DNA of 16,656 nucleotides from Okeania hirsuta (GTDB lineage Bacteria; Cyanobacteriota; Cyanobacteriia; Cyanobacteriales; Microcoleaceae): NCBI RefSeq assembly GCF_003838225.1, contig NZ_RCBZ01000114.1; one strand, 5' to 3'. Positions within the stretch are counted from its first letter, which is position 1; every line of letters begins with the position of its first letter. The notes below the pieces were generated by a model. That model saw nothing but the letters and a program-made list of their open reading frames with translations, had not been told where the DNA came from and searched no databases. Of this stretch, positions 1 through 16,656 are shown piece after piece. The translations under genes and the position numbers were made by a program.

Positions 1-49
1 GCAAACCCTAATTAGTATTAGAAGGTAGAGAGTTGAAGCGTCATAAAAT

Positions 50-994
50 TCAGATATCTTGTCTATTTCTGGCATCTAAAAATTTTAATTGTTGATACAA
101 CATCCCAATTTTATCTAGCTGAATACCTGCTGCACCTGCCATTCGTAAAGGGTTGCCAATAATACTTTCTATTTCTAAAGGTTGTCGTCGCTCATAATCA
201 ATTTTCATGCTAGTTAAATAAGGGTTTAACTTGTAAGTATGGTCTAACATATTTTGAATATAACTATTTGGAATTTCGCACTTACAACTTTTTGCACCCT
301 CCAATACTTCTTGCATTATTTCTGTGATTAAGTTTCTAGTATTAGTATCTCCCATCATTTCATCAGTTCGAGCATCTAGAATTACTGACAAGCTGTTATA
401 AGGAATATTCCAAACTAATTTTTTCCATCTTTCTTGGAATAAATCTTCACTCAAATTAACTTGTATTCCAGCACTTTCAAAATCTTGGGAAATTTCACGC
501 ATTTTATTAGTAATACCAGCAGGTTGATAATTTGTGGTATATTTTCCGATTCTAATCAAACCATAATCTACATGGCGAATATGACCATAACCTATTTTAT
601 TAGAAGCAATATTAGATACTCCTCCAATTACTCTTTCCTCACCAACAATTTTGGCTATTTCAGGTTCTGCACCCAATCCATTTTGTAAGAGTAAGACAAC
701 GTTATTTTCTTGGCACAAAGGTGGGAGTAATTCTGGTAATAAATAGTTTTGCGTTGTTTTTAATGCTACGAGAATTACATCACATTTTGGCATTTTATTA
801 GTATTGTTATAGGCGTTAATTTGAGGGAGGGTAAAGTCGCCATTTTTGGATTCTATGATTAAGCCATTTTTGAGAACGTGCTGATAATCACTACGCAGTA
901 AAAAATGAACTTCTAATCCTGCTTTTTGTAGTTTTGCACCGTAAAAACCTCCTAGTGCGCCACTGCCAATAATCGCGTAAGTATTTTTTGACAT
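50..994 (-). CDS. panE: 2-dehydropantoate 2-reductase (ketopantoate reductase, ApbA/PanE family)
   Basis: 314 aa ORF with an ATG start at 994. The N-terminal Rossmann motif IIGSGALGGFYGAKL and the overall length and composition are typical of the KPR/ApbA family. Confidence 0.85.
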   Translation of the reverse strand: MSKNTYAIIGSGALGGFYGAKLQKAGLEVHFLLRSDYQHVLKNGLIIESKNGDFTLPQINAYNNTNKMPKCDVILVALKTTQNYLLPELLPPLCQENNVVLLLQNGLGAEPEIAKIVGEERVIGGVSNIASNKIGYGHIRHVDYGLIRIGKYTTNYQPAGITNKMREISQDFESAGIQVNLSEDLFQERWKKLVWNIPYNSLSVILDARTDEMMGDTNTRNLITEIMQEVLEGAKSCKCEIPNSYIQNMLDHTYKLNPYLTSMKIDYERRQPLEIESIIGNPLRMAGAAGIQLDKIGMLYQQLKFLDARNRQDI

Positions 995-1669
995 TTTATT
1001 GAACTTAAATTCGACTCTGTTTCTATTTTATTGTAAGCATTTCCTACGGAATGCTGCGCAAACAGCTATTAGCTGTCAGCTCTCAACAACAAGACTCTCT
1101 CATATAGGACAGTGTTTAAATTAATATAGACTTTAAGGGCAAGGGAGCTAACTTTTGCAGTAAGACAATTAATAAAGCTTTTATGGTAAACTAAAAGCAA
1201 TAGCTAATAGTTATGACTGACCGTTGAATGCTTCAATAAAAGTTTTATTTAAACTCTATTATTAAGGGCGAAGTCTTAATTTTTTTTACTTCATATACTT
1301 GCATTTTGCTGTATTAAACTCAACTCTATCATTATTTTATCTGTTCAAATTTTTCAACTTTAATTTTGCTACATGAATAGTCTTTCCATTATCCAGTTTA
1401 AAATTTTTCCTAAAGCAAATCCTCCTGCCAATGCTAAGAAAATATAATACAGTAGATTCCACTTTAATCAGATACACCCGTCGCTGGCAAGATGCCCGCA
1501 CTAGAAACATTTAATTGTTAATCTCTGTACTTCTTATGGGAGGAATCTGCTGTAATTTATATTTATAACTCCAGCTTAAGTTTCTAGAATGTTCTAAATA
1601 AAGAAAGATAGAAAAAAATAGCAGGCAAAAACAGTACTAAAACTAAAGTTATAGTGTTTATAAAAGTTA

Positions 1670-1756
1670 TAGCAGTCGAAGGAAAGGTTAGGAGAAATAA
1701 AAAACTTAAAACTCAGACAAAGGAATATTTTTCCTTCTTCCCTCTTCCTTCTGCTA
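1670..1756. mobile_element. MITE-like element, copy A (~85 bp). Imperfect terminal inverted repeats GCAGTCGAAGGAAAGG / CCTTCTTCC..CTGC, a CT-rich interior and TA on both flanks.
   Basis: The left end TA|GCAGTCGAAGG matches the reverse complement of the right end CCTTCTGC|TA. A second copy at 15743-15852 shares the blocks GCAGTCGAAGGAAAGG, CTTAAAACTCAGACAA and TTCTGCTATA. The two copies differ in an internal variable segment and in CT-tract length. Confidence 0.5.
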
Positions 1757-1781
1757 TATACCAATTCCTAAAAATAATGCT

Positions 1782-2222
1782 CTACTTATATTCATTGTTA
1801 ATTTTTGAATAACTAGGAAAACTCAATAACCATTTCCTCATTTCATCAGATAATTTTTGCCTACTTCTACTTTGAGGATGAATACAAACGTGCTTCGTAA
1901 TAGCTCTTGCCCCCCACTTATCCTCTGTTTCTTTTAAAAAGACTTGATAGGAAATTTCAAACTCATCGTCTCTCCAACTTTTAGGAATTAATTCAATAGT
2001 TAACTCATCCCCACAAAACATCGGGCGACGAAAATCAACATTAGCATGAATAATTGGAATAGCTATTTCTTGATTACTAAAAAAAACTTTCAGATTAATA
2101 CCAAATTCTACTAAAGATGCTTCATAAGCTTCATGGCACATTGCTAAAACATTAGCAAAATAAACTACTCCAGCAGCATCGGTATCTTGAAAATGAACTA
2201 TTCTTGTATAGTAAAAAGACAT
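1782..2222 (-). CDS. 1,4-dihydroxy-2-naphthoyl-CoA thioesterase (hot-dog/4HBT fold; phylloquinone pathway)
   Basis: 146 aa. The N-terminus YTRIVHFQDTDAAGVVYFANVLAMCHEAYEASL and the VDFRRPMFCGDEL motif closely match the cyanobacterial Slr0204-type DHNA-CoA hydrolase as recalled from memory. Confidence 0.85.
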   Translation of the reverse strand: MSFYYTRIVHFQDTDAAGVVYFANVLAMCHEAYEASLVEFGINLKVFFSNQEIAIPIIHANVDFRRPMFCGDELTIELIPKSWRDDEFEISYQVFLKETEDKWGARAITKHVCIHPQSRSRQKLSDEMRKWLLSFPSYSKINNEYK

Positions 2223-2270
2223 TTATAGATATAGGTTTAATAATAATACCATTTCTTCCTTCTTCCTTTT

Positions 2271-2323
2271 CTGAACAATGAACAATCACTACAATAAAAT
2301 TGAGTATTGTTCATTGAACATTC
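2271..2323. promoter_or_regulatory. Candidate operator in the thioesterase promoter region: direct TGAACA-A-TGAACA (2272-2284) plus a perfect 6-N-6 palindrome TGTTCA-T-TGAACA (2310-2322)
   Basis: Four hexamer half-sites fall within 52 bp, immediately upstream of the minus-strand start at 2222. Confidence 0.3.
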
Positions 2324-2347
2324 ATCAGGACTAATTTTGTAATTAAA

Positions 2348-2794
2348 TTAACCCTTATTTTTAATCATTATTACATCAATAATCTTAGTCGCTACTGCTT
2401 CGGAAATTTCCAAAGCATTATATAACTCATTCAAAAGTTGTTCCTCCTCTTCAGCAAGGTCTCCATCTACTAAAACCAAGTCTGTACTAACAGCAAAAAC
2501 TGTTTCCCTTAACTCCTTTGGAAGTTTAGCAACTGCAGCATCAAACAAAGGCTTAATTTCTTGATTTTTAATCATATCGAGAAGACGGTCTTGCATTTCT
2601 GTTTTACGTTCTTTTGGATAATCACTAAACAGTTGCATACGAGAGAAAATATTATTAATACCTTGAGATTCACTCTTAGTAATAACACCATCAGCAGCAA
2701 CAGCAATTAAAGCGATCGCTGCAAAAGCTTCTGCCGGTTCTAATTGAATATCAGTAGCTTGTATTGTTGTTGTTCCTTGATCGAAAAGACCCAT
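2348..2794 (-). CDS. TerB-like (tellurite-resistance TerB domain) protein
   Basis: 148 aa acidic helical protein. The stretch EAFAAIALIAVAADGVITKSESQGINNIF and the C-terminal DGDLAEEEEQLLNELYNAL resemble the TerB-fold. ATG start at 2794. Confidence 0.55.
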   Translation of the reverse strand: MGLFDQGTTTIQATDIQLEPAEAFAAIALIAVAADGVITKSESQGINNIFSRMQLFSDYPKERKTEMQDRLLDMIKNQEIKPLFDAAVAKLPKELRETVFAVSTDLVLVDGDLAEEEEQLLNELYNALEISEAVATKIIDVIMIKNKG

Positions 2795-2908
2795 TTTAGT
2801 ACCTCATTAATGATTTTTTTACCATCTCTATTTTGGAAAAATATTAGGTGTTATTAAATAAGTTTTAGATTGAATCTACAACCTAAAATTTACCACCTAC
2901 TACCTTCT

Positions 2909-4264
2909 TCAATACTTCTCAAAAACTGTTAAATTAGCTTTGAGAAAATCAATAAATTGTCGTGCCGTTCGCCCAGAGCGACCATTATATTTCGTAGCCC
3001 ATTGTAAAGCTTGATAGTCTAAATCTTCAGGATTTAGATTAATTTTTGCCTGTTTTGCCAGATGTCTAACAATTGTTAAATAAGTATCCTGGTTAGCAGG
3101 TTCAAAAGTTAAAGTTAAGCCAAAGCGATCGCTAAAAGAAAGCTTTTCTTGAACTGTATCCCAATTATGAACCTCATCACTATCTTTTGGGCGAGGGCGA
3201 TCGTTAAAAAATTCTCTAATTAAATGCCTTCTATTTGATGTAGCATAGACTACCACATTTGTTGGTCTAGCAGTTAAATTACCCTCTAAAACAACTTTAA
3301 GAGCTTTAAAAGTATCATCATCTTCTTCAAAGGAAAGGTCATCGACAAAGATAATAAATTTTTGTGGAATATCGCGTAATTTTTCTACAATTAATGGTAA
3401 ATCTTTTAGGTTTGATTTAGCCACTTCGACTAAACGAAGATTGCGTTGACTATACTCATTTAATAAGGCTTTTATTAAAGAGGATTTGCCAGAACCGCGA
3501 CTACCATAAAGTAATATATTAAGGGCTGAATATCCTGCTAGGAGAAATTCTGTATTTTTGATTAAGGCATCTTTTTGAAATTCATATCCGACCAATTCTT
3601 TTAATTCAACTGGGTCAGGGTAAGTAATAGTAAGTAGTTGACCGTTACGCCATTCAAAGGCAATTGATTCAGCAAATAAACCAGTGCCATTATGATGATA
3701 ATGAGTGGCTAAGGTCTCAATGGCATCTGCCCAATTTTCTAATTTTTTTAACTCGTCGTAGATAGCTTCTTTTTGTTGTGATTGTATTTCCCACGCAATA
3801 GGGGGATTCTCTAATTTAGCTATTGTTTTTACCCACTGACTAATTGTTTTACCACTGCACTGATAAAGATTTTGTAAAATTTGTAAATCATGTTTTGCAG
3901 CTGCAATTAAATTTGGAGATAGGCTGGTAATATTTATTTTTTGAACTTGTTGACTAAAGGGATTATCATCTTGAATAATCTGAGCAATTAGATATTCTTG
4001 CCAGGAAATATTTTGACTAGCAATATTTATAAACCAGTTACCATAAGCTTGAAGGCATTCTATAGCAACTCCATCATTTTTAGACAAAGATTCTAATAAT
4101 TGGATAAAAGCTTCACCCACTGTTTTTTTTAGAACAGACTGATATAACAATAGAGATGCTATTTGCTGTTGTAAGTTTTGAATTTTGGCTAACACTTGGG
4201 AACCTAAACAAGACATAATTAATGATATGATTGCCTTATTAAATAAAGGATCAGCACTTAGCAC
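2909..4264 (-). CDS. DUF815-family P-loop (AAA+-like) ATPase with an ~200 aa N-terminal extension
   Basis: 451 aa. Walker A is LLYGSRGSGKSSLIKAL, Walker B is IIFVDDLSF, and the C-terminal YNGRSGRTARQF motif is present. The tracked start at 4264 is GTG; an in-frame ATG (MSCLGSQ...) lies 48 nt downstream, so the true start is uncertain. Confidence 0.65.
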   Translation of the reverse strand: MLSADPLFNKAIISLIMSCLGSQVLAKIQNLQQQIASLLLYQSVLKKTVGEAFIQLLESLSKNDGVAIECLQAYGNWFINIASQNISWQEYLIAQIIQDDNPFSQQVQKINITSLSPNLIAAAKHDLQILQNLYQCSGKTISQWVKTIAKLENPPIAWEIQSQQKEAIYDELKKLENWADAIETLATHYHHNGTGLFAESIAFEWRNGQLLTITYPDPVELKELVGYEFQKDALIKNTEFLLAGYSALNILLYGSRGSGKSSLIKALLNEYSQRNLRLVEVAKSNLKDLPLIVEKLRDIPQKFIIFVDDLSFEEDDDTFKALKVVLEGNLTARPTNVVVYATSNRRHLIREFFNDRPRPKDSDEVHNWDTVQEKLSFSDRFGLTLTFEPANQDTYLTIVRHLAKQAKINLNPEDLDYQALQWATKYNGRSGRTARQFIDFLKANLTVFEKY

Positions 4265-4679
4265 TCAGCAATTAGTAGGAGCATTTTTTTTAGGTTTATA
4301 AGGGGATTTCAACTCCTACTAAACTATCTGAAACAATATTTGTTAGAGATTTTAACCCAAACTCAAAAAACTTTATAATAGCTGATAGCTTACCACTGGA
4401 TACTTACCTATTTCTTTGGCGTAATGTAAATCTATGTAATTCTATAATAAATTTTACTCTTTGTAGTTATAAACCACTATTTTTTTACATTTACTTAAGA
4501 TGCAATTTAAGATCGAGAAATATTTCAAAAAATGTTATTGAATAGTTGAAAATTTCATTTTTAATCATAGTTTAATAATTATTGAATCTTGATTAAGCAA
4601 TATTAAGTTTTGATAAATTGGCTAGCTATTGCCACAAATAAGCTGTATAAGTTAGTTTTAGTTTTAGGAGTTAATAATA

Positions 4680-5018
4680 ATGACTATAAATATCGCCATA
4701 ATAGCAGCGATCGCCTATGGTATATTAGCCATTGTTGGGGGCATTATTGGATATACGAAAGTAGGCAGCAAAATATCTTTAATATCTGGTAGTATCAGTG
4801 GTTTACTACTAATTGTTAGTGGAATTATTCAACTAATGGGCATGAATTGGGGTCTAATATTTTCTACCCTCATTACAACTATTCTAGTAATTACATTCAT
4901 TATTCGTTTAGCAAAAACTCGTAAAATGATGCCTGCGGGATTAATGATTTTAACTGGAGTTGCTGCTGTAGCAGTTATGGTTTATGAAATTACCATAAAC
5001 AATTCAGCCACAATTTAA
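4680..5018 (+). CDS. TMEM14/UPF0136-family small integral membrane protein
   Basis: 112 aa with four predicted TM helices. The GGIIGYTKVGSKISLISG and PAGLMILTG glycine-zipper motifs match the family. A good RBS (AGGAG) sits 9 nt upstream of the ATG. Confidence 0.7.
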   Translation: MTINIAIIAAIAYGILAIVGGIIGYTKVGSKISLISGSISGLLLIVSGIIQLMGMNWGLIFSTLITTILVITFIIRLAKTRKMMPAGLMILTGVAAVAVMVYEITINNSATI

Positions 5019-5280
5019 AAAGAAACGTAAGTATTTAGCCGTCAGCTTTCAGCTCCATTAGAACTAATGACTATAGCCTTTAAAGCAGAAGTTACCATTG
5101 ACAGATTTTATCTAATTAAAAATATGAATTAAAAGTTTCCCTAGTAACTTCTAAAGTCTTAAAAAATGCTTACTTCATTTATTAATCAAGATGAGAGCTG
5201 ACCACTAATCACTGTTTGTGGAGCATTCAGGCACGGAAATCCTTATACCAATTTCATAAACTTGAGCTACTTAGGTTTGG

Positions 5281-5310
5281 AGTAGTCAGTAGTCAGTAGT
5301 CAGTAGTCAG
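5281..5310. repeat. Heptanucleotide tandem repeat (AGTAGTC)x4, STRR-like
   Basis: Directly visible: agtagtcagtagtcagtagtcagtagtcag. Confidence 0.9.
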
Positions 5311-5462
5311 GAGGTAAGGTGAGTAGCCTTACTTTTTGAATTTGGTATTACAAAGAAACAAAGAATATGGAAGAGATAAAAAAGTAGAAACTTGCTCAAT
5401 AGACATATAGATATCTCCAGAAAAGAGATAACAGGTAACAGGAAGAAATAATAGAAATCATC

Positions 5463-5520
5463 AATTATTTCTCCCTACTCCCCTACTCCCCTACTCCCTG
5501 CTCCCTACTCCCTACTCCCT
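5463..5520. repeat. Hepta/octanucleotide tandem repeat (CCCTACT/CCCCTACT) x~7, STRR-like. The same unit recurs at 10901-10917 and 11062-11080.
   Basis: Directly visible: ctccctactcccctactcccctactccctgctccctactccctactccct. The reverse complement shares the AGTAG core with the 5281-5310 array, so the two arrays are imperfect inverted repeats. Confidence 0.9.
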
Positions 5521-5630
5521 AAATTGGGATTAATCAACCCATTAGCCGTACCAAAAAGATTAATTGGACTCTTACCATCAGTAATTAAAACACTCTGAAG
5601 ACCAAGCCCCTACAACAACCTCGCCTGCAT

Positions 5631-7267
5631 TTATGGGCCAGCTTGAGCGATCGCCCGAATTGTCTCAGCCCCCAAAGCCTCCACTTTTTGCTGAAACTCA
5701 GTAGCAGTAATTTCAGCCATTTGCCTTGCCTTCTCAATCTCTAAATTATTCAGTGTCTGCTGATGGGCTAACTCAGTCTCCTGACGCGCCCTCAACTGAG
5801 CCATCTCAGCCTCATGGCGAATCCGTGCTGCTTCTACTTCCTGCTGCGCCAAATTCACCGCCAACTGGCCTTGAAAAGGAGATAACATATAAGCTTGAGG
5901 TCCATTGACTAATTTTAGTTCCCCACTTTGAACATCCCGTACATATATACCTTCATTTTTGTCTAGGGGAATAGCCTGAAGTTTTTCTAATACTTCTAAT
6001 TCCACTGGGGGAATATAATCTCTTGGCCCAGTAATCATCCATAAATCTCCTGGTTGCCGAGTAATAACGTTTGCTCCTGTTCCCTCGGTGAAAGTTTCCT
6101 CAACTCTGATTAGGAGTGCTTCTTGTTCACCAAGAATATAGACCTTTTTAATTCCTGTTTCTAAATCTTCTCCTGGGTGCAAAAAGAAAGATGTTCTGCC
6201 CTGACGCACTTCTTTCATACCCCACTGCGGTTTACCATCTGCATCTATGGGATTAGTTACTATGCACCATTCGCGATCGCTTAAAGTAGTGATTTTGACT
6301 TCTCCCACTACTTCTTCATAAACGTCGGGAATATGAATTTCAGCATCTGCAAAAGTAACTAACTATTCATATCCCGCTTTGCGTTGCTGACCAAAAATAT
6401 CAGTAAAAGTCCGTTTTGCTTTTAGATGTAGTGCTTGACGTTCGGTTAATACATAGGCATCAATAGTATCGACAATTTCTTCATCTACTCCAGGCAAATA
6501 AGCACCTTCTTCCCTGACCAACCATTATTCCCCAGTTCTACGTCTGTTACCTTGACGATCTATACAATTTTGTCGTGCCAGCAGTCGTAAGGCTTGGTTA
6601 GGTTTAATTATTTTAGCTATAACTGTGACTACCACTTCAACTTCTACCCTGGGAGTGTAAGTTCCTGGCCCCTCAAATAACCATTCATCCCCTGTCGTAC
6701 GAGTGACAGTTTGAGACTCTCCTGCAACGATAACTGTATCAGTAAAATCTCGTATTGCTTTGAGACGTAGAGTTTGGTTTGTGTCAATTACTTGTAGTTG
6801 AGTTACATCTTCTTCGAGTATTTCTCCTGGATATAGTGGGAAAGGGTCTTGAGCAAAGCGAATTTCCAGATCGCCATATTTGAGTCTAATTTAACCATAC
6901 TCATCGGCCACAAGTTGATCTGAACTATAGCAATGTGCGCTGGCATATTTACACATTATTTTTTGTACACCTTTTCTAAAATGCACTTTGAACTGGGCCT
7001 TGTAAATACCTGAGCGCTCATTGCTATATTTCTTAGTACAGGGTTAGCTGCTACACAATAATGGCGAGGTGGAACTACAATTGTCAGTTGTGGTTGTCAG
7101 ACTAACCTTTCTGCATCTCCAAGGGTAATGGTTTGAGGGCCTATTTCTAGTCTGATAACACCAGTGTTATTGTCAAGAACATGAATATACTGTTGTGGCT
7201 TCAGGAGAATTATACCATTGTTCTCTATTGTAATTGGATATTCTGTGGTACTTTTTATTTTACTCAT
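5631..7267 (-). pseudogene. Major vault protein (MVP)-like gene, decayed: four in-frame stops, one frame-breaking insertion, an internal deletion and a C-terminal truncation
   Basis: My manual minus-strand translation from the ATG at 7267 gives MSKIKSTTEYPITIENNGIILLKPQQYIHVLDNNTGVIRLEIGPQTITLGDAERLV*QPQLTIVVPPRHYCVAANPV... After the insertion it continues ...[88 protein letters not shown]...RRTGE*WLVREEGAYLPGVDEEIVDTIDAYVLTERQALHLKAKRTFTDIFGQQRKAGYE*LVTFADAEIHIPDVYEEVV and runs in frame into the tracked ORF 5631-6308 (...AIPLDKNEGIYVRDVQSGELKLVNGPQAYML...). These stretches align colinearly with human MVP repeats 1-7 as recalled from memory ([27 protein letters not shown]; [17 protein letters not shown]; [21 protein letters not shown]; TGEEWLV; AIPLDENEGIYVQDV) and with the extreme cap-helix end (IGPSTIRDLAVAGPE vs LGAETIRAIAQAGP). 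The stops are TGA at 7099-7097, TAA at 6893-6891, TAA at 6527-6525 and TAG at 6365-6363. Confidence 0.8.
6928..7026. mobile_element. MITE-like ~95 bp insertion inside the MVP-like pseudogene, with terminal inverted repeats GCAATGTGCGCTGG / CTGAGCGCTCATTGC and TA flanks
   Basis: The MVP frame is frame 0 upstream and shifts by 2 downstream. The intervening ~95 bp (length ≡2 mod 3) has no MVP counterpart and is bounded by 15/17-matching inverted repeats. Its ends (TATAGCAATG) resemble those of the 1670/15743 element (TATAGCAGTCG). Confidence 0.55.
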
Positions 7268-7330
7268 AGTTTAATAGTTTTGTAACTAGAAATCTTAAGT
7301 TATTCATTATCCATTATTAATTATCTCTTA

Positions 7331-9709
7331 CTATCGTCGCCAAATTTTAATAGTTCTGTCTTTACTACCACTAGCAATACTATTACCATCAGGACTAAAA
7401 GTAACTGTATAAATCTCATCTTTATGCCCGGTCAAAGTACTAACTAATTCTCCTGTTTCTAAATCCCATATCTTAATATTATTATCCTTACTGCCACTAG
7501 CAATATATCGACCATCTTCGCTAATATCAACAGATACAACTTCAGCAGTATGACCAAGAATAGTTTTGATTAATTCTCCTGTTTTTAAGCTCCAAATTTT
7601 AATAGTATTATCGTAACTCCCACTCACTATTTTTTCCCCATCTGGACTAATATCAACAGACCTAATTACTCCTTCATGTCCAGTCAATGTATTAATTAAT
7701 TCTCCAGTATATAAATCTTCAATTTTTATAGTTTGATCTGCACTACCACTAACCAATATTCTGCCGTCAGGACTAATAGCAATAGAATAAACTACATCTG
7801 AGTGATCGGGGAAATTAAAAATTAAGAAACCTGTTTCTAAATCCCAAACTTTAACTGTTTTATCTCCACTAGCACTAGCAATTGTTTGATTATCAGAACT
7901 CATAGCAACTGACCAAACAGGTGCCCAATGTTCAAATACTCGAAATAATTCTCCTGTTTCCAAATTCCAGATCATTACTCTCCAATCATAAGTACCTACC
8001 ACTAATTTAGTACCATTATTATTCAAAGCAACTGACCAAATTGGAGAATCATCTGCAGCTAATGTGTTGATAATTTTTCCTGTAGGAACTTCTAAAATTT
8101 TTACTGTTGTATCTCTACTTCCAGTAACTAAATTTTCGCCATTATCACTAAATGCAAGAGCGCCTATAGAAGCATTAAACCTAGACAAATCTTCAACTTG
8201 ATAATTCTGCCAATTTAGACCTTGTTGACAATTTTGTAAAAGAGATTGAGCTTCAGCAAAAATGCTAGATTTTTCACTAATTAAAGTTCCTTGATTGATA
8301 CATTCTTCATAGTTGCGCTCTATGTATAAGTTTTTTACAAAATTAAATTTTGCCGATTCTTGTTCTTGCTGTTGTAATACTTGTTGTTGACGTAATTGTA
8401 AATAATTTTGGAATTTAAGATATCTATATATAGCAAAGATTATTACAATTAAGGTAGCGATAAATCCTAAAATCAACTGCCAGTTAAAAGATGATTGTTT
8501 GTTATTATTGCTAAATATTTTTTTAAATTTAGTAAGTAGAGATTTTGGTAAAACTCTGTTTTCTATTAATTCTATATCTTCTTGAGTTAGTCCTAAAATT
8601 TGCTGTAGACGCTCTAACTCCTGGCGAGTTTCTTGACTAAAAGGATATTCTTCCTGAATCGCAGCTTTTAATGTTTCTTCATATCTTTCTCCTTTCATCC
8701 GATATTTACGGTAAGGATTTAATACTTCATCCTCAATTATTTCCGTTTCTTCCCGGGAGAGTTCTAAACTTTCTCTAAGTTCATCTAAAATTCTTCTCCC
8801 GACAATAGAAATATCTCCTCTATCGCTAGCTCGACGAATAACCTCTTCCCGATAAATTTCTTTATTATCTGTAGCGAAACTTGGAAACTCATTAATTTTT
8901 TTTAAATCTGCTATAACTTCTGCTGCTGACTGGTAACGTTCGTGAAAGTTATAGCGCACCATTTTATCTAAAATATCTGCTAGAGAAGTAGAACAATTTG
9001 TTAGGTATCGCCAAAAAATCTCTTTTTTTTCACCATTTTCATTATCCTTTAGTTTCGATAATTCGCTGCTAGGCAATCCCGTAATTGCCTGAATGCCAAT
9101 CATTCCTAAAGCATAAATATCACTATTTAATTGGGGATTATATTCAAATTGTTCAATTGGCATATATTCCATTGTGCCAATCCTAGCTGTAGGATTTTGC
9201 TGACCAATATTAATTTCTTTAACAGCTCCAAAATCAATTAATACTAATTGATTATCCGATTTTCTTCTAATTAAATTAGCAGGCTTAATATCTCGATGAA
9301 TAACACTATTTTCATGCACAAATACTAAAATTTCTAATACTTCATTGATAATTAAAATTACTTGTTTTTCAGATAGGGGTTTACCAGGTAATATTTCATT
9401 GTCTAAAGATTGACCAGGAATAAAAGATTGAACTAGAAAAAACTCTCGATCTTCTTCAAAATATGCAAGTAGTTTAGGAATTCGATCATGTTGAGAAAGC
9501 TTTTCTAGCATCTGTGCTTCTTTTTGAAATCGATCGCGAACGATATTAATTAATCTTCGATCATAAATACTTGGTTGTAGATGCTTAATAAAACATTGTG
9601 CTTCTCCAGGACGACGAATGTCTAAGGCCAGATAAGCATGGCCAATTTCCCCTGATTCAATAATTTTAATAATTTGATAGCGTCCATCTAAAATATTACC
9701 AATCATCAT
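7331..9709 (-). CDS. Serine/threonine protein kinase with a central helical/coiled region, one TM helix and a C-terminal seven-blade WD40 domain
   Basis: 792 aa. Kinase motifs are HRDIKPANL, IDFGAVKE and GTMEYMPIEQ. The TM segment is LILGFIATLIVIIFAIYRYL. Seven WD40 repeats follow (…GHxxxVxSVxISPDG…SGSxDxTIKIW). ATG-ATG start at 9709. Confidence 0.9.
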   Translation of the reverse strand: MMIGNILDGRYQIIKIIESGEIGHAYLALDIRRPGEAQCFIKHLQPSIYDRRLINIVRDRFQKEAQMLEKLSQHDRIPKLLAYFEEDREFFLVQSFIPGQSLDNEILPGKPLSEKQVILIINEVLEILVFVHENSVIHRDIKPANLIRRKSDNQLVLIDFGAVKEINIGQQNPTARIGTMEYMPIEQFEYNPQLNSDIYALGMIGIQAITGLPSSELSKLKDNENGEKKEIFWRYLTNCSTSLADILDKMVRYNFHERYQSAAEVIADLKKINEFPSFATDNKEIYREEVIRRASDRGDISIVGRRILDELRESLELSREETEIIEDEVLNPYRKYRMKGERYEETLKAAIQEEYPFSQETRQELERLQQILGLTQEDIELIENRVLPKSLLTKFKKIFSNNNKQSSFNWQLILGFIATLIVIIFAIYRYLKFQNYLQLRQQQVLQQQEQESAKFNFVKNLYIERNYEECINQGTLISEKSSIFAEAQSLLQNCQQGLNWQNYQVEDLSRFNASIGALAFSDNGENLVTGSRDTTVKILEVPTGKIINTLAADDSPIWSVALNNNGTKLVVGTYDWRVMIWNLETGELFRVFEHWAPVWSVAMSSDNQTIASASGDKTVKVWDLETGFLIFNFPDHSDVVYSIAISPDGRILVSGSADQTIKIEDLYTGELINTLTGHEGVIRSVDISPDGEKIVSGSYDNTIKIWSLKTGELIKTILGHTAEVVSVDISEDGRYIASGSKDNNIKIWDLETGELVSTLTGHKDEIYTVTFSPDGNSIASGSKDRTIKIWRR

Positions 9710-10021
9710 TATTGTGGTAGAGCCTTTTTTAGTTGATTATGGCATGAAACAATTTACTCATTTTGACATCTACAATTATAAAAAAAATAGTTTTAATTAA
9801 GAATATTTTCCTGATTCCAAAACTGAAAATTAGAAGTTTAATTGTAACCCTTAATCATTAATTGATAGAGATATGTTACTCCAGAACACAAATTAATTCT
9901 GATAAAAAGTGTAATATAGAAACCAAAATAATAATTTTGGCCACTCAAAACAAAAGCACAATTTTAACAGTGCTATCATAGACAGAAGCAAAGCTAAAAT
10001 CAGGTATAGGGAGTTAAGTGG

Positions 10022-10471
10022 ATGAGCCATGAAATAATAGCAATTAGGAGACCTGTTAGACCAAAACAGCCTATTGAGCCAAATTCTCCAAAGGAGGCGC
10101 TTCACGAACAAATTGAGTCAAAAGTAGAAAAACCAAATTCAATAAAAAATAGCCCCTCATCAAGAACAGAAGGTACGAATGAAAGGCAATTAGGAAAACC
10201 AATAAGTAAATCAGAAAGACCCAAAAAACCAGGAAAACCAAAGCTAAAAGAATCTATCCAACAAGTCACCAATGCTAACGGAAAAGTTTTTAGTTCGGGG
10301 GATAAGATTTTAGTATCAGCACCCTGGAGTAGTATTGTAGAAGCTGAAATTACGGGTTTTTATAAAAGTCCTGGAGGTTCAATCTGGGCAATTTTTCTTC
10401 CCCAAGAATCTCTACCTAAGTGGAAGTGGGAAAAAGGTTGCATCCGAGCTGAATTATTAAAACAAGCATAA
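10022..10471 (+). CDS. Hypothetical protein: Lys/Pro-rich low-complexity N-terminal half and a small Trp-containing C-terminal domain
   Basis: 149 aa ORF with ATG at 10022 and AGGGAG 13 nt upstream. No recognisable family. The antisense 72 aa ORF is hydrophobic junk. Confidence 0.45.
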   Translation: MSHEIIAIRRPVRPKQPIEPNSPKEALHEQIESKVEKPNSIKNSPSSRTEGTNERQLGKPISKSERPKKPGKPKLKESIQQVTNANGKVFSSGDKILVSAPWSSIVEAEITGFYKSPGGSIWAIFLPQESLPKWKWEKGCIRAELLKQA

Positions 10472-10600
10472 TTAAGGCAAAAAAAATCTTAAATTCAGGA
10501 TAATTTAGCATCTAAAAAAAATCCTAAAAAATATAACAGGATGATTTGGGTTGTGTAGAAAATATCCTGAATCAAATTAAGAGGAAACAGGGAAAAAATA
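10470..10600. promoter_or_regulatory. Repeated motif TATCCTGAAT: one inverted copy (aaattcaggataattt, ~10485) and two direct copies (~10563 and ~10601), plus an ATCCT..N14..AGGAT dyad at ~10519-10543
   Basis: Directly visible repeats in an intergenic A-rich region just 3' of the hypothetical gene. Confidence 0.3.
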
Positions 10601-10916
10601 TCCTGAATAAAGGGAGGGGGGAGAGGATATATTTTAAACTTTTCTCCTGTTCCATAAATATTTAATCAAACTTGATATAACTGATACTAAATCTGATTTA
10701 GATAGGTTACTTGTTAAGGTAGTAAATATTTATCCAAATGGTTAAATTCAAACAAATCAATTTCTTAAAGTGCTGAAAGTGTTAGTTTTTCAGGAGTTAA
10801 TTCTTGAGCAAATTGGAAAACAAAATTTTCTTGCTGTTTAGTTTCTATTGTGTATTGAAGAGTTTCTCTGACCTTAGCGATCGCCTCACTATCAGTTCCG
10901 GTGCTCCCTACTCCCT

Positions 10917-11062
10917 CTCTTGGTGAGCGTTCCTTGCCTTGGTCGATTGGATATGGCGTTAGCGCAACGGATCTGCCAGAGCGGGTTTCCTCGCCATTTC
11001 ACCCTACGGGAAGCTCCAAAGATCGACCGCTTGCGTCTGTCGCACCCCGCGGGGTCGCACCG
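10917..11062. other. GC-rich, palindrome-dense ~145 bp segment bracketed by direct copies of the STRR-like unit (C)TGCTCCCTACTCCCT. Candidate structured RNA or mobile-element remnant.
   Basis: It stands out against the AT-rich background. Long-range complementarity exists between GGTCGATTGG (10941-10950) and CCAAAGATCGACC (11017-11029). A perfect 12-nt palindrome ACCCCGCGGGGT lies at 11044-11055. GCGTTAGCGCAAC has near-palindromic relatives at 11213-11232 and 11292-11304. The flanking direct repeats are 10899-10917 and 11056-11080. Confidence 0.3.
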
Positions 11063-11430
11063 CTGCTCCCTACTCCCTAAATTTTTGATTGTGGTTATTC
11101 AAACAGACATGATATAATAGTAAAAATCCTTAAAAAAAATTTAGAGACGCGATCGCCCACATCTCTAAAATTACTATTCGACTATTTCAGCCAGAATTGA
11201 TATCCTCTCGACGTTGCGCTTAGGCGACAACGTGGGATTCCTAACCATCACTGATTAGGTTTTTCTGTTCCCTCTTGCCTCCTCCGGAGGAGCTGCGCTA
11301 ACAGAGGATCTGCCTCCGAGGTCTTTCCCTCTTTTTGGTCTTAAGGTCGCTCCACAGTACGTCACCAATCCGATGGCTCCCCTAGACACTGCTAGCCCAG
11401 CAGCCTCAATTTAAGTATTATAGCACATGG

Positions 11431-11462
11431 TTTGAAAAAAAAACCAATCAATATTGGTTTTC
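11431..11462 (-). terminator. Possible weak, bidirectional intrinsic terminator 3' of the helicase gene
   Basis: A9 run, then the hairpin AACCAAT-caat-ATTGGTT, then a T4 run. On the minus strand the hairpin is followed by a U9 run. The stem is AT-rich with only 2 GC pairs. Confidence 0.35.
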
Positions 11463-11523
11463 CCATAGGATTATCCCGCACTCTCCTGAGGGCGGGTCTT
11501 CAACCAACGTTGAAATAAGTAAC

Positions 11524-13008
11524 TTAATTATTGCGTGACACAGAAGCCTCTTCTACAAAATTGTCACCATCTCTCCTCTGATTTTTAGGAGAAGGTTTTT
11601 GATGACGAATCTTCGGTGAGCGTGGCTTTGGCTTTGGCTTCGGAGTTTCATAGACAGGGATTTCTTCCTCCTGAGCATAATCAGGCCCCATCCAAGCAGG
11701 ACGAGTTTCATCATAAGCTATCTGTAAAGCTGCTGCAGCGATCGCATGGGGGTCATACTCTTCACCCAACTGAGCAATCAATGGTAAGAAAGAAGCCATT
11801 CGTTCCCCACTCAGAGCATCTCGTACCTTATTCTGTAACTTCTGCAACTGTCGGGCTTCAATTTGAGACCGCTTAGGAATCGAGCGAGTATCCAAACGTT
11901 GACGTAGATGACGTTCTATCAACCGTAACTTCCGCTTATCTAAAGGATTAATTAACGAAATCGCTGTACCTTCACGACCTGCACGACCTGTACGACCAAT
12001 ACGGTGAACATAATTTTCCACACTATCAGGTAAATCGTAGTTAATCACATGAGTTAAGTGGTCCACATCTAAACCACGAGCTGCAATATCAGTTGCCACT
12101 ACCCAACGTACTTGTTGATTACGAAAGCGACTTAGCAACCGTTCTCGTTGGGATTGATTCAAGTTACCATGATATTCATCAACACTATGACCTGCTGACT
12201 GTAATTGGTTTGTTAGTTCAGCCGCTGCTTGCCTTGTCCGCACAAATATCAAAGCTGCTTCTGGGTCTTCGAGTTCTAGAACTGGCTGTAAGGCTTTAGC
12301 TTTCGGCCAACCACGAGGCACCATGTAAGCAATCTGAGAAATTCGCTTCGGAGTTGTCTTTTGTTGAGCAACTTTGACTGTTACTGGCGATCGCAAATAT
12401 TTATTCACCAGTTTCTTGATTGAGTAGTCCATGGTAGCAGAGAAGAAAGCTGTTTGATGTTCAGTGGGTGCTGCATCCAAAATTCTTTCTACATCCTGAA
12501 TAAAACCCATACTCAACATTTCGTCAGCTTCGTCTAAAACCATCATTTTCAAACTATCTAGTTTTAAACTATTGCGACTCAGCATATCCAGAATCCGTCC
12601 TGGCGTTCCAACTACGATATGAACACCTCTTTGAAGGCGCTGAATCTGACGTTCAATAGATTGACCGCCATAAACAGTTAAGACCTGTAATCGATGTTTC
12701 GTTGGACTCTTGTTATCCAAACCAGCAATTTGACGAATCGCTTCTGTAACTTGCAGCGCTAACTCACGAGTGGGAGTCAAAATCAAAGCTTGAACTGCCT
12801 TTGTCTCCAGCTCAATTCTCTCCAATATGGGTAACGAAAACGCTGCGGTTTTACCTGTTCCTGTTTGGGCTTGACCTACAATATCGGTTCCTGCCAGCAA
12901 ATGAGGTATTGCTTGGACTTGAATCGGAGTAGGTTCAGTAAAACCAATTGTTTCCAGATGATTTACACGCTCTTGTGAAATTCCTAAATTTGCAAACGAT
13001 AAATCCAT
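11524..13008 (-). CDS. DEAD-box ATP-dependent RNA helicase (CrhR/CrhC-like) with a basic Pro/Lys-rich C-terminal tail
   Basis: 494 aa. Q-motif (FTEPTPIQ), motif I AQTGTGKT, Ia PTRELA, II VLDEADEML, III SAT (FSATM) and VI HRIGRTGRAG. A strong RBS (TAGGAG) precedes the ATG at 13008. Confidence 0.9.
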   Translation of the reverse strand: MDLSFANLGISQERVNHLETIGFTEPTPIQVQAIPHLLAGTDIVGQAQTGTGKTAAFSLPILERIELETKAVQALILTPTRELALQVTEAIRQIAGLDNKSPTKHRLQVLTVYGGQSIERQIQRLQRGVHIVVGTPGRILDMLSRNSLKLDSLKMMVLDEADEMLSMGFIQDVERILDAAPTEHQTAFFSATMDYSIKKLVNKYLRSPVTVKVAQQKTTPKRISQIAYMVPRGWPKAKALQPVLELEDPEAALIFVRTRQAAAELTNQLQSAGHSVDEYHGNLNQSQRERLLSRFRNQQVRWVVATDIAARGLDVDHLTHVINYDLPDSVENYVHRIGRTGRAGREGTAISLINPLDKRKLRLIERHLRQRLDTRSIPKRSQIEARQLQKLQNKVRDALSGERMASFLPLIAQLGEEYDPHAIAAAALQIAYDETRPAWMGPDYAQEEEIPVYETPKPKPKPRSPKIRHQKPSPKNQRRDGDNFVEEASVSRNN

Positions 13009-13500
13009 TCATTCTCCTAAGTAAATTATTTTACATCTGGTTTTGTTACCCAACTTGGAGGCAGATTTATGCTCAACTATAGCTGCTTATCAGCCCTTGC
13101 TCACGATAAACCTGTAGTTATTTGGTAGGGCAGTATGCCTTTGCCAATCACAGTTTCTACTAAATCTACTAAACTGATAGCTAACATTTTAGTAGTGTCT
13201 GTATGTTCTCAACGGCTAGGTTTTAACCTGAAGATCGACGACAGAATTAAAGGCAAAATGCCTGTTCCTTTTCTCTCTAGTTGGGTATAGTGAAGTACCT
13301 GCTCTATAAAACTGATACAAAGCGTCACATAAAGTGACAAATTGACGTTTACTTCTTGCTTCAACTGAGGCCGTCGGCGGTTACTCATCCACAAGCATTT
13401 ACGGTCGAGCCGACCGCATATCTCAAATTTATACTGGCGTTTAAATCTCCTCAAAAGGAGAATCAGCGCAGCCACCCTGCTTCTCAAGGCGGATAAATTC
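13009..13500 (-). promoter_or_regulatory. Putative long 5' leader/promoter region of the DEAD-box helicase gene, with several stable hairpins
   Basis: Local GC-rich hairpins on the minus strand include GTCACTTTATGTGAC (~13320-13334), GGTCGGCTCGACC (~13404-13416) and CTCCTTTTGAGGAG (~13449-13462). The only ORF here (92 aa) is Arg-rich and implausible. Confidence 0.3.
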
Positions 13501-14334
13501 TGATTTTTTTTGTAGAGGCTTTCCGATTTTACAGGCAGACAAACATGAACATTATTAAGTTATGTAGTTTGTCTGATTACCTGAACTACCGCTAGTAGAT
13601 ATAATAGAAAATTTATATTGTTTCTACGACCTTTTAAGTAAGTCAGGTAGGTTATCAACCACTACAATATAAAGATATAGAAATTACTACTGTCTCACAC
13701 ATATCAATCTCAGGAATTTTAAGCCCCTGCGATTAAGTTTCCTTTCGTCTCACTCCTAAACCTACGGCCATAGAGAGGAATTTCCTAGAGGGTCTGTTGA
13801 GAAAGGTTAGAGCCAATATTTGGCTATCGTTAAGCTGTTGTATATATCAAGTTTCCGTTGGACAAAGGAAGAAAAAATGACCTTAATTTTGAGGTTTTCC
13901 ATGTCCCAGCGTATCTACCTACATTACCGTAGGTATTTTATGATACTTAACAGCTCCCTTTGGGTAGCTCGTCTTTATCTTCATAATGATTAACATAATA
14001 ACAAATGACTTAACATTTGCCACATTTATTACATATTTTCCTGGAATTAACTTAATTTTTTAGATTTTGTACATTGATGTAGAGGTTTTGGGACATTACA
14101 CACTTTTTACAGAAGTTACTTAAAAGTGATACAGGCGTTACATGTAAAGTCTGTAAAGCAATCAAAGTTAAGAAGAATTTCTGATGTATATATTGTAATG
14201 TGTTAAGATTTTAAGTTGCGCAAGAAGCCCAGTATAGTTTATATCTTCATAAGTATCATTTAGTTGCAAGACTTTATGTGTCTAATGATGCTTTGGCAAT
14301 CCCTAAAAATGTACCCTACACTTCAACTGAATGA

Positions 14335-15666
14335 CTAATTGCTTGATTTACTCAAATCTACATAACCATACAAATCGTAAACATCTGCATCTGTAATCAT
14401 CACTGGCACAATTGAACCCAAACGAGCTTTACCTTGGAGATAAACAAGTCCATCCACTTCTGGAGAAAACCGTGGTGACCTACCAATCAACTCTCCTGTC
14501 TGAGGATTTTCCTGTTCAATCAGTACATCAACTACTTGTCCCACTGATTTTTGATTCTGTTTTCCAGATATGGGCTGCTGGACTTGCATAATTTTTTCTC
14601 TACGGGTGTCCATCACTGCTTTGGGCAACTGATTAGGCAAACTATAGGCGGGGGTTCCTTCTTCTGGAGAGAAAGTAAATACCCCAACATGATCGAACTC
14701 GTGACGCTTGACAAATTTCACTAAATGTGCATGATGATCTTCCGTTTCACCAGGGAAGCCCACTATAAAGGTTGTCCGCAACACGGCATTGGGCATAGCT
14801 GCTTTTATTTTTTCGATTATATCATCATTAACCCGACCTTGCCAAGGTCTATTCATGGCCCGCAATATTTGGGGATGAGAATGTTGTAAAGGCAAGTCTA
14901 GATAGGGTAAAATATTGGGAGTTTCTTGAATAGCAGCTATTACTTTGGGAGTCAAACCTGTAGGATAGGCATAGTGCATTCTAATCCAGGGTATATCAAC
15001 TTTTCCTAGGGCGCGGAGAAGTTCGGCGAGTTTGGGTTCGCCATAAATATCGATTCCATAGTTAGTGGTTATTTGGGAGATGAGGATGATTTCTTTTACC
15101 CCTTGGTCTGCTAGTTGTTGAGCTTCAGTGACAATAGATTCTATGGTGCGCGATCGCTGATTTCCTCGTAGATGAGGAATAATACAAAAAGCACAACGAT
15201 AATCACAACCTTCAGCTATTCGCACATAAGCAACTCCTTCGGATGTGGTGCGGTAACGTGGGGTTGTTTCATCGGCAATATAGGTGGGTTGAGGGGAGAC
15301 TTCTGTGACGCGATCGCCTTTTTCTACCCGTTGCATCACATCAACTATTTTATGATAATCACCAGTCCCCACAAGTGCTACTGCTTCTGGTAACTCTGCA
15401 AGTAATTCTTCTTGGAAGTGTTGCGCCATACAACCTGCGATGACTATTTTTTTGTTAGCTTCTGCTAATTCTACCAAAGTACGAACAGATTCTTCTCTGG
15501 CAGTTTGAATAAAACTACAGGTGTTAACGACTACATAATCTGCTAATTCTTCGTTAGCATCTACTTGATAACCCGCTTGTGCTAGTAAACCTATGATATG
15601 TTCGGTATCGATACGATTTTTTTCGCACCCTAAGTGAGAGAATGAAATGGTAGGTTTTGTAGACAT
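14335..15666 (-). CDS. rimO: Ribosomal protein S12 methylthiotransferase RimO (radical-SAM MTTase with TRAM domain)
   Basis: 443 aa. The N-terminal MTTase domain (FSHLGCEKN…NTCSF) is followed by the radical-SAM CDYRCAFC motif and a C-terminal TRAM domain. ATG at 15666. Confidence 0.9.
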
Positions 15667-15742
15667 TTAGAGTTCTGAGTTATTAATTTTGATCGGGAAT
15701 AGTCTTTATAATATAGCATATTACCTATGGCCAAATAAGGTA

Positions 15743-15852
15743 TGGCAGTCGAAGGAAAGGGTGCGAACAGATCGAGAGCTTAAAACTCAGACAACACAAT
15801 ATTTTTTCTTTTTCCTTCTTCCTTCTTTACTTCTTCCTTCTTCTTTCTGCTA
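15743..15852. mobile_element. MITE-like element, copy B (~106 bp). Left end TG|GCAGTCGAAGGAAAGG, right end CTTCTTTCTGC|TA.
   Basis: It shares ~16-bp identical blocks with copy A (1670-1756) and has a longer CT-rich tract. It lies between the rimO start and the ompA-like gene end. Confidence 0.5.
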
Positions 15853-15970
15853 TAAAGCAAGTCAAAGGTCTTAAACAGACAAAAACTGGCATTAAATCCT
15901 AGAATTTGGCATCTGCCAGTCGAAAAATAAGAGTTAAAAATTAATATTGATTTTGTGAAGAAGTTCAAAG

Positions 15971-16656
15971 TTAATTAGCGGGTGTCAAAATAATTACTGT
16001 TCGCTGATTGACATCAGCAGCAGGATCGCTACCAGGGAGTGGTTGAGAAAATCCCATTCCTTTGCCAACAACCTGATATGGTAAATTCTGCTGTTTCAAA
16101 TATTCGACTACTGCATTTGCTCGGTCTTGAGATATTTCTTGGTTTAACTGAGCACCACCGACCTGAGATGTATGACCTTCAACTCTAATCGTAACTTTAT
16201 TAGGATCGTATTCTTTAATTTCTGAGATGAGACTATTTATAGTTTGCTCTGCTTGGGGAGATAATTCAAATTCATCAAATCCAAATTTTACTTGACCTAA
16301 AGTTTTGGCTTTACTCAAATTCTTGCCTTGTGGTTGAGATGTTGTAGATGTGTTAGTAGAGGTAGCAGCAGAAGTTTCGATTTCTGGCGATGATGTAGCA
16401 GTTGGTTGTGCAGTTCCAGATCCAGAGGTAGTAGTAATATTAGTAGTAGGTGATACGGTCGCAGATGGAGAAGTAGATACTGAGCTAGTAGTTGTTTCAG
16501 TGTCTGTGGTTTCTGTAGTTGTAGTTATAGACTCTGCTTCAGTGGTTGTTGTATCAGTTGTAATAGGAGTGGGAGACTCTGCTGTAGTAGTTGTTTCGGT
16601 TTCTGTGGTTTCTGTAGTTGTAGTTATAGACTCTGCTTCAGTGGTTGTTGTATCAG
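15971..16656 (-). CDS. OmpA-family (peptidoglycan-binding OmpA_C domain) protein, 5'-partial. A Thr/Ser/Glu-rich tandem-repeat linker precedes the OmpA_C domain.
   Basis: The C-terminal 115 aa (…TIRVEGHTSQVGGAQLNQEISQDRANAVVEYL…) is an OmpA_C-like fold. The open frame continues upstream without a stop to the window edge (…TTTTEAESITTTTETTETETTTT…). Confidence 0.75.
   Translation of the reverse strand, partial: DTTTTEAESITTTTETTETETTTTAESPTPITTDTTTTEAESITTTTETTDTETTTSSVSTSPSATVSPTTNITTTSGSGTAQPTATSSPEIETSAATSTNTSTTSQPQGKNLSKAKTLGQVKFGFDEFELSPQAEQTINSLISEIKEYDPNKVTIRVEGHTSQVGGAQLNQEISQDRANAVVEYLKQQNLPYQVVGKGMGFSQPLPGSDPAADVNQRTVIILTPAN
16494..16656. repeat. 99-bp (33-codon) tandem repeat, ≥1.6 copies, inside the OmpA-family gene
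   Basis: gtttctgtagttgtagttatagactctgcttcagtggttgttgtatcag occurs at 16509-16557 and again at 16608-16656. The repeat is truncated by the window edge. Confidence 0.7.

Follow-up and report, generated by a model that had tools for sequence, protein, structure and literature searches.

A miniature inverted-repeat transposable element with IS630-type ends in a decayed major vault protein gene of Okeania hirsuta

A 16,656-nucleotide stretch of the Okeania hirsuta genome (contig NZ_RCBZ01000114.1 of assembly GCF_003838225.1; hereafter the window) carries on its minus strand a decayed homologue of the major vault protein (MVP) gene, and a 99-bp element with inverted-repeat ends lies within it at positions 6928–7026. 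The host is a filamentous marine cyanobacterium. Upstream of the element the pseudogene retains codons 1–80 (7028–7267), with an in-frame TGA at 7099–7097. Downstream it continues in a frame shifted by 2 (5505–6927) and is interrupted by in-frame stops at 6893–6891, 6527–6525, 6365–6363, 5633–5631, and 5612–5610. The six stops fall at codons 57, 92, 214, 268, 512, and 519, and the changes that probably produced them are, in order, TTA to TGA, CAA to TAA, GAA to TAA, TGG to TAG, GAA to TAA, and GAG to TAG. An in-frame deletion of 948 bp, with its junction at 5876/5875, has removed the shoulder domain. Pfam Vault domains are still recognizable downstream of the insertion, with matches to Vault, Vault_2, and Vault_4 on the longest open reading frame (ORF; 5631–6308), and the 225-aa ORF product is annotated as "MULTISPECIES: hypothetical protein [Okeania]". 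The closest full-length relatives are cyanobacterial proteins of 870–926 aa that have the MVP shoulder domain; source annotations of cyanobacterial MVP homologues read either "colicin uptake protein" or "major vault protein".

The element is flanked by two copies of the dinucleotide TA, at 6926–6927 and 7027–7028, as an earlier interpretation made without database searches (the sequence-only reading) had recorded. From junction to junction the window reads TA/TAGCAATGTGCGCTGGCATATTTACA...TGTAAATACCTGAGCGCTCATTGCTA/TA. A left terminal inverted repeat (TAGCAATGTGCGCTGGCATATTTACA, 6928–6953, plus strand) and a right one (TAGCAATGAGCGCTCAGGTATTTACA as read on the minus strand, 7001–7026) enclose a non-coding interior of 47 bp (6954–7000). 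A repeat finder identified inverted arms at 6922–6953 and 7001–7032 (32 nt, 81% complementary). Each strand of the window has one occurrence of the end motif ATAGCAATGWGCGCTSRG, two in all, compared to 0.04 expected by chance; none of 200 shuffles gave two. The predicted fold of a 126-nt region has a free energy of −38.4 kcal/mol (z = −5.8 on the minus strand, which is the sense strand of the gene, and −3.9 on the plus strand). The motif count relative to expectation and the fold relative to shuffles indicate that the inverted-repeat feature is real, at the position first proposed for it, and not a product of chance. Its arms had been said to match at 15 of 17 positions, a count that needs correction to 14 of 17 without gaps or 15 of 18 with one gap. 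Comparison across the family described below sets the true terminal repeat at 26 nt (TAGCAATGNGCGCTNNNNTATTTACA), over which the two ends of the window copy agree at 21 positions; in short form the ends read TAGCAATG...TATTTACA. The window copy differs from the family consensus at eight positions, all of them in the interior; its two terminal repeats are identical to the consensus. The interior has a G+C content of 34%, lower than the 36% of the whole window and the 42% of the pseudogene around it. Only chance ORFs of 26–47 aa overlap the element.

Removal of 6926–7026 (101 bp, comprising the 99-bp element and one TA) restores a single minus-strand frame over 550 codons. Across the excised junction the conceptual protein (NPVLRN/SSDQLVADEYG) aligns without gaps to an intact 926-aa MVP from Okeania sp. 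SIO3I5 (NPVLKD/SDNQLLVDEYG; protein P0002, contig L124 8001–10781). That gene is the positional orthologue of the window gene, and both loci have the gene order Ser/Thr kinase-WD40, MVP, Tmemb_14, DUF815 ATPase, TerB, and thioesterase. In the DNA alignment, window 7275–7033 corresponds to L124 7993–8235 (84% identity) and window 6919–6150 to L124 8248–9016. The window has 113 bp between these blocks, 101 bp more than the 12 bp of L124. In L124 the empty site reads ...AAAGGATA/GTGATAATCAAC, with a single TA (...GGATA/GTGAT...), and the occupied site reads ...AAGAAATA, the element, then TAGTTCAGATCAAC; the junction was placed by eye. A syntenic pseudogene on a JGI metagenome contig (L128) is also without the 101 bp (11 bp vs 112 bp). 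The insertion point is codon 80–81 of the MVP-like gene, and since 101 mod 3 is 2, the frame resumes shifted by 2.

These comparisons bear on several claims of the sequence-only reading. It had described extra DNA without an MVP counterpart that shifts the frame by 2; the insertion and the shift are both borne out, and the size becomes 101 bp instead of ~95 bp. The comparison it proposed with an empty orthologous site has two positive outcomes, in the intact gene of L124 and in the pseudogene of L128. It had also allowed that the TA flanks could be native, which is true of one TA; the other is a target-site duplication. An artefact of assembly was considered as the source of the element and ruled out. 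Window 4601–9800 is 100% identical to contigs L126 and L127 of two assemblies, and window 2255–16656 is 99.9% identical to contig JAAHGC010000034 of GCA_010672625.1 (L001), where the element copy matches at 99 of 99 positions. The same allele is therefore present in three assemblies.

Copies of the element were found at many other loci. One genome per species was scanned for exact matches to the pattern TAGCAATGNGCGCTNNNNTATTTA, yielding at least 120 matches, and those listed come only from Okeania spp., Dapis spp., Trichodesmium (including T. erythraeum IMS101), and related metagenome-assembled genomes (MAGs). The complete 99–100 bp unit is present at no fewer than 15 of these genome loci (88%–95% identity), and a metagenome scan using the conserved core recovered 33 contigs. 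After removal of duplicates, genome and metagenome copies together occupy at least 38 further distinct sites with mutually unrelated flanks (80%–97% identity), copy numbers here being lower bounds. The hosts are at least eight genomes or MAGs, belonging to Okeania, Dapis, Trichodesmium, and related MAGs, plus metagenome contigs. TA lies directly outside both ends at 37 of the 38 other sites; the lone exception has GA/TA and is at a locus orthologous to one with TA. The reconstructed target consists of an invariant TA with A/T at −3 and +3. The nearest relatives of the window copy (97% identity) are three mutually identical copies at three different sites (L137, L138, and L153), which suggests that the family may have been active recently. 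The longest open stretch across an excised junction at the other sites is 133 codons. No long ORF spans these junctions, and the copies therefore lie essentially in non-coding DNA. The element had no match in the plasmid collection (blastn, distant mode), and neither the end pattern nor the core pattern had a match in viral contigs, which gives no link to phages. With multiple copies, a duplicated TA, inverted-repeat ends, and an empty orthologous site, the element is a miniature inverted-repeat transposable element (MITE), as the sequence-only reading had proposed, and the copy count that it recommended as a check came out in its favor.

The same reading had suspected a mobilizing transposase of the IS630/Tc1-mariner type and pointed to a full-length insertion sequence (IS) with matching ends as something to look for. 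Such an IS is present in Okeania sp. SIO3B5 (L044 4372–5737). It is 1,366 bp long and TA-flanked, and its ends (TAGCAATGTGCCCTGGCCTATTTACA and TAGCAATGAGCGCTGGTCTATTTACA) match the 26-nt left terminal repeat of the MITE at 24 and 23 of 26 positions. The IS contains orfA (123 aa, with a helix-turn-helix [HTH]) and orfB (164 aa, with a DDE domain), which overlap at a run of nine adenines (A9) at 4924–4932. Joined by a −1 shift at this run, they give a 296-aa protein that scores 188 bits against NCBIfam NF033545 (transpos_IS630; cutoff 100) and, in Pfam, 128 bits against DDE_3 and 43.7 bits against HTH_Tnp_IS630. The DDE_3 match spans profile positions 2–144 of 146, and a match so close to full length suggests that the catalytic acidic triad (DDE/DDD) of the putative transposase is intact. 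The fusion is colinear with a 291-aa NCBI protein named "IS630 family transposase [unclassified Okeania]" (P0135; 87% identity, 99% coverage). In L162, the P0135 gene shows an identical arrangement of two frames and an A9 run, and no direct translation of an ORF gives the deposited protein; a conserved frameshift site at the A9 run is thus likely. We infer that frameshifting there is programmed, in which case a −1 ribosomal frameshift would make the transposase. Degraded copies of the IS were identified at L037, L058, L064, and L117. Among the matches listed in the genome scan, about 100 of 120 genome loci share only the first 26–31 nt with the MITE, and some of these are the ends of longer elements. 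The 47-bp interior of the MITE has no detectable similarity to the full-length IS, and only the 26-nt ends are common to both.

We interpret 6928–7026 as a 99-bp non-coding, non-autonomous MITE that was mobilized in trans by an IS630-family transposase and inserted at a TA that was duplicated, and we place the probability of this interpretation at about 0.93. In IS630/Tc1-mariner transposition, the HTH domains of the transposase bind the terminal repeats, and excision is followed by integration at a TA that repair then duplicates. Here an IS630-family (Tc1/mariner-type DDE) transposase, which full-length ISs of the same lineage would provide in trans, would bind and cleave at the two 26-nt terminal repeats. 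The element would have been cut and pasted into the TA at codon 80–81 of the minus-strand MVP-like gene, duplicating the TA, adding 101 bp, shifting the frame by 2, and placing a strong hairpin in the gene. As far as sequence can tell, the anatomy of the element fits every expectation of IS630/Tc1-mariner transposition. The comparisons above establish an insertion, a target-site duplication, a multi-copy family, ends common to an IS630-family IS, and an empty orthologous site. Mobilization in trans by a transposase of the partner type would account for how the element arrived. Some observations weigh against this interpretation. The interior has no counterpart in the IS, and simple deletion within any of the IS copies seen would therefore not yield the MITE. 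Where stretches of the element look invariant across copies, this is partly an ascertainment effect, since the search patterns demanded the bases in question. Finally, no copy was traced in the window's own strain beyond this locus, although the host assemblies were not scanned whole.

A short element with IS630-type ends could also be the local remnant of a full-length IS that inserted at this site and then collapsed where it stood through internal deletion. Shortened or degraded IS copies with the same ends do occur elsewhere, such as at L058 (1,399 bp, with fragmented ORFs), L117 (934 bp), and L036 (226 bp). However, the 99–100 bp unit recurs with the same 47-bp interior at no fewer than 38 other, unrelated sites. 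Independent deletions would not repeat one product, which excludes collapse in place, and the lack of similarity between this interior and that of the IS likewise makes such a history highly improbable. An origin of the MITE as an internal-deletion derivative of the IS was also considered and was rejected on the grounds that the interior has no IS similarity and that the 99–100 bp unit recurs at many sites. The strength of the predicted hairpin on the sense strand of the gene (−38.4 kcal/mol, z = −5.8), along with the dispersal of multiple copies mostly outside long ORFs, would also be compatible with a functional RNA or DNA element that is no transposon, such as a regulatory stem-loop, a terminator, a small RNA, or a repetitive extragenic palindromic (REP)-like repeat. 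Against such a function, RNAalifold applied to 39 copies found only the terminal-repeat pairing, with no compensatory pairs, a covariation term of 0.03 kcal/mol, and no conserved pairing in the interior. Rfam had no match over 6700–7300 at E ≤ 1, and a promoter and terminator scan placed no site within the element, with counts at the level of shuffled sequence. Strict TA/TA flanks and ends in common with a transposase-encoding IS are instead hallmarks of a transposon. RNA structure as the primary explanation was rejected for want of compensatory change in the 39 copies, and we consider it very improbable. A secondary role for some copies is possible.

The sequence-only reading had the MITE disrupting the MVP-like gene. 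The frame is indeed broken, but six nonsense codons and the 948-bp deletion are present besides, and one of the stops (codon 57) lies upstream of the insertion. The MITE is therefore only one of several lesions, and another of them may have inactivated the gene. We somewhat favor the view that the gene had already lost its function when the element arrived. The six nonsense codons, the deletion, and 44 lineage-specific non-synonymous changes all fit this order, as does the location of the other family copies in non-coding DNA. The ends of the MITE are at consensus and its TA duplications are intact, while the gene has 112 lineage-specific substitutions. It seems less likely, though the idea deserves some weight, that the insertion was the primary inactivation of a functional MVP gene and that the six stops and the deletion accumulated later. 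The insertion is the only lesion that shifts the frame, all others being in frame. Okeania sp. SIO3I5 still has an intact copy, which indicates that loss of the gene is recent within the genus, and a different mobile element (IS605-type TnpB) also disrupts MVP in L128, showing that mobile DNA does hit this gene. An early insertion fits less well with the TGA at codon 57, upstream of codon 80, and with ends and TA duplications that are undamaged and at consensus compared to 112 lineage-specific substitutions over 1,650 nt of the gene. Neither point is decisive, since 99 bp can hold few mutations. All contigs with the pseudogene allele (L001, L126, and L127) are identical across it, which keeps the order of events a matter of interpretation; the next relatives, L124 and L128, share none of the window's lesions.

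The pseudogene and its relatives differ in several other respects. Over ~1,650 aligned nt, the 112 lineage-specific substitutions in the pseudogene comprise 62 synonymous, 44 non-synonymous, and six nonsense changes, with no small frameshifting indel, a lack that looks mildly unusual for a pseudogene. On the coding strand, G-to-A changes outnumber C-to-T changes (29 vs 12). Only ~63 bp (7268–7330) separate the kinase-WD40 gene from the MVP start in the window, whereas the same spacer is ~0.9–1.1 kb in relatives and includes heptamer repeats (L124 6880–7992 and L128 2711–3641). Either the window lineage has lost DNA here, possibly including the MVP promoter, or the relatives have gained insertions. 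Intact Okeania MVPs (P0002 in L124 and P0001 in L125) have a ~55-aa insert, a partial duplication (...GTKEVRQGKTSFF...), relative to the window gene and to typical cyanobacterial MVPs of 870–890 aa. In the Okeania-like lineage represented by L128 (JGI 3300019849, contig Ga0205459_104961), the syntenic MVP gene (3642–6894) was inactivated independently: codon 9 is a stop, and the middle of the gene has given way to an IS605-type element that encodes a 399-aa TnpB (OrfB_IS605). No contig was located for a further MVP fragment, P0125 from Okeania sp. SIO2F4. Beyond window position 2255, L001 stops being colinear (window 1–2254 compared to L001 16338–17068); this break is a strain-level rearrangement or an insertion/deletion adjoining the thioesterase gene.

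Other repeats accompany the MITE family in these genomes. A second non-autonomous family has the same left end and is far more abundant, accounting for about 100 of the 120 genome matches among those listed. Its members, 105–230 bp in length, follow the layout TA/TAGCAATG.GCGCTGG.ATATTTACAAATT..., ~60 bp, ...TTTATTCCCCC, a variable number of TGTTGCC heptamers, and TGCGCACAGCGCTA/TA, sometimes with other nested modules in addition to the heptamers. They are found within L004–L123 (for example, at L008 from 1612 on the minus strand, L016 from 430 on the plus strand, and L096, from T. erythraeum IMS101). Tandem CTCCCTA heptamers occur in the window at 5495–5520, 10898–10916, and 11060–11078 and also 3′ of MVP in L125 and L128, and their reverse complement adjoins some of the elements with shared ends (L053 and L111). 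Another dispersed repeat of ~95–117 bp has two copies in the window (1667–1762 and 15740–15855; 77%–92% identical), with TA-flanked ends TAGCAGTCGAAGGAAAGG...CCTTCTTCCTTCTGCTA and 42 blastn matches in ~1 Mb of related loci; it looks like a second MITE family in the window. A repeat of 46–56 bp (GAATGCTGCGCAAACAGC...) is represented by an inverted pair at 1049–1085 and 5192–5228 (37 nt, 84%). Related loci contain 56 matches to it; in L085 it is arrayed in tandem with a period of 91, and some members of the heptamer-bearing family have it nested within them.

It is conceivable, and we advance it tentatively as somewhat short of an even chance, that a single IS630 transposase lineage using a conserved −1 frameshift at the A9 run serves at least two unrelated non-autonomous families in Okeania, Dapis, and Trichodesmium, namely the 99-bp MITE and the heptamer-bearing family of 105–230 bp. 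If so, such elements would together account for an appreciable part of the unusually large share of non-coding DNA in these genomes and would contribute to MVP decay that has recurred independently. The window holds one of at least two independent MVP inactivations in Okeania, which bears on the dispensability of bacterial vault-like proteins. The ends of the family, its target (TA with A/T at −3 and +3), and its putative partner transposase are now defined, which should help in the annotation of genomes of Okeania, Dapis, and Trichodesmium, where repeats of this kind interrupt the assemblies. The MITE can also be used as a presence/absence marker that separates Okeania lineages.

TA-duplicating MITEs of the IS630/Tc1-mariner type include the Correia elements of Neisseria, Nezha of Anabaena/Nostoc, and the Stowaway elements of plants. 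The window element resembles these in being ~100 bp long, non-coding, multi-copy, mostly intergenic, and bounded by ~26-nt inverted repeats, and its family shares ends with an IS630-family IS. Its sequence is unrelated to that of any named family that could be checked. The end sequence of the family was not found in the literature searched; the catalogue of the MITE survey cited next was not inspected. Okeania sp. KiyG1 and O. hirsuta have been reported to contain 225 and 221 different conserved MITEs, respectively, the highest diversity of all prokaryotes (NAR 2024, PMC11602168), and the window family, or a sister family with the same ends, occurs in both of these genomes. The element is thus a textbook MITE insertion in the genus reported as the most MITE-diverse among prokaryotes. 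ISY100 from Synechocystis PCC 6803 is a member of the Tc1/mariner/IS630 family whose transposase uses two HTH motifs to bind the terminal inverted repeats (PMC2170065). ISY100 resembles the L044 IS, which is TA-flanked and has a putative transposase of ~290 aa with N-terminal HTH and DDE_3 domains. The comparison is by description and not by sequence, and it sets the L044 IS apart in having two overlapping frames at a conserved A9 run. Cyanobacterial MVP homologues have been described previously (bioRxiv 10.1101/872010; PMC3762200). The window gene is a positional orthologue of these proteins, which are 870–926 aa long with Vault repeats and a shoulder domain, but unlike the intact genes it is a pseudogene with a MITE insertion, six nonsense codons, and a deleted shoulder domain. 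We rate the MITE family as probably new, or at least unnamed, within a well-known kind, the TA-duplicating MITEs tied to an IS630-family IS.

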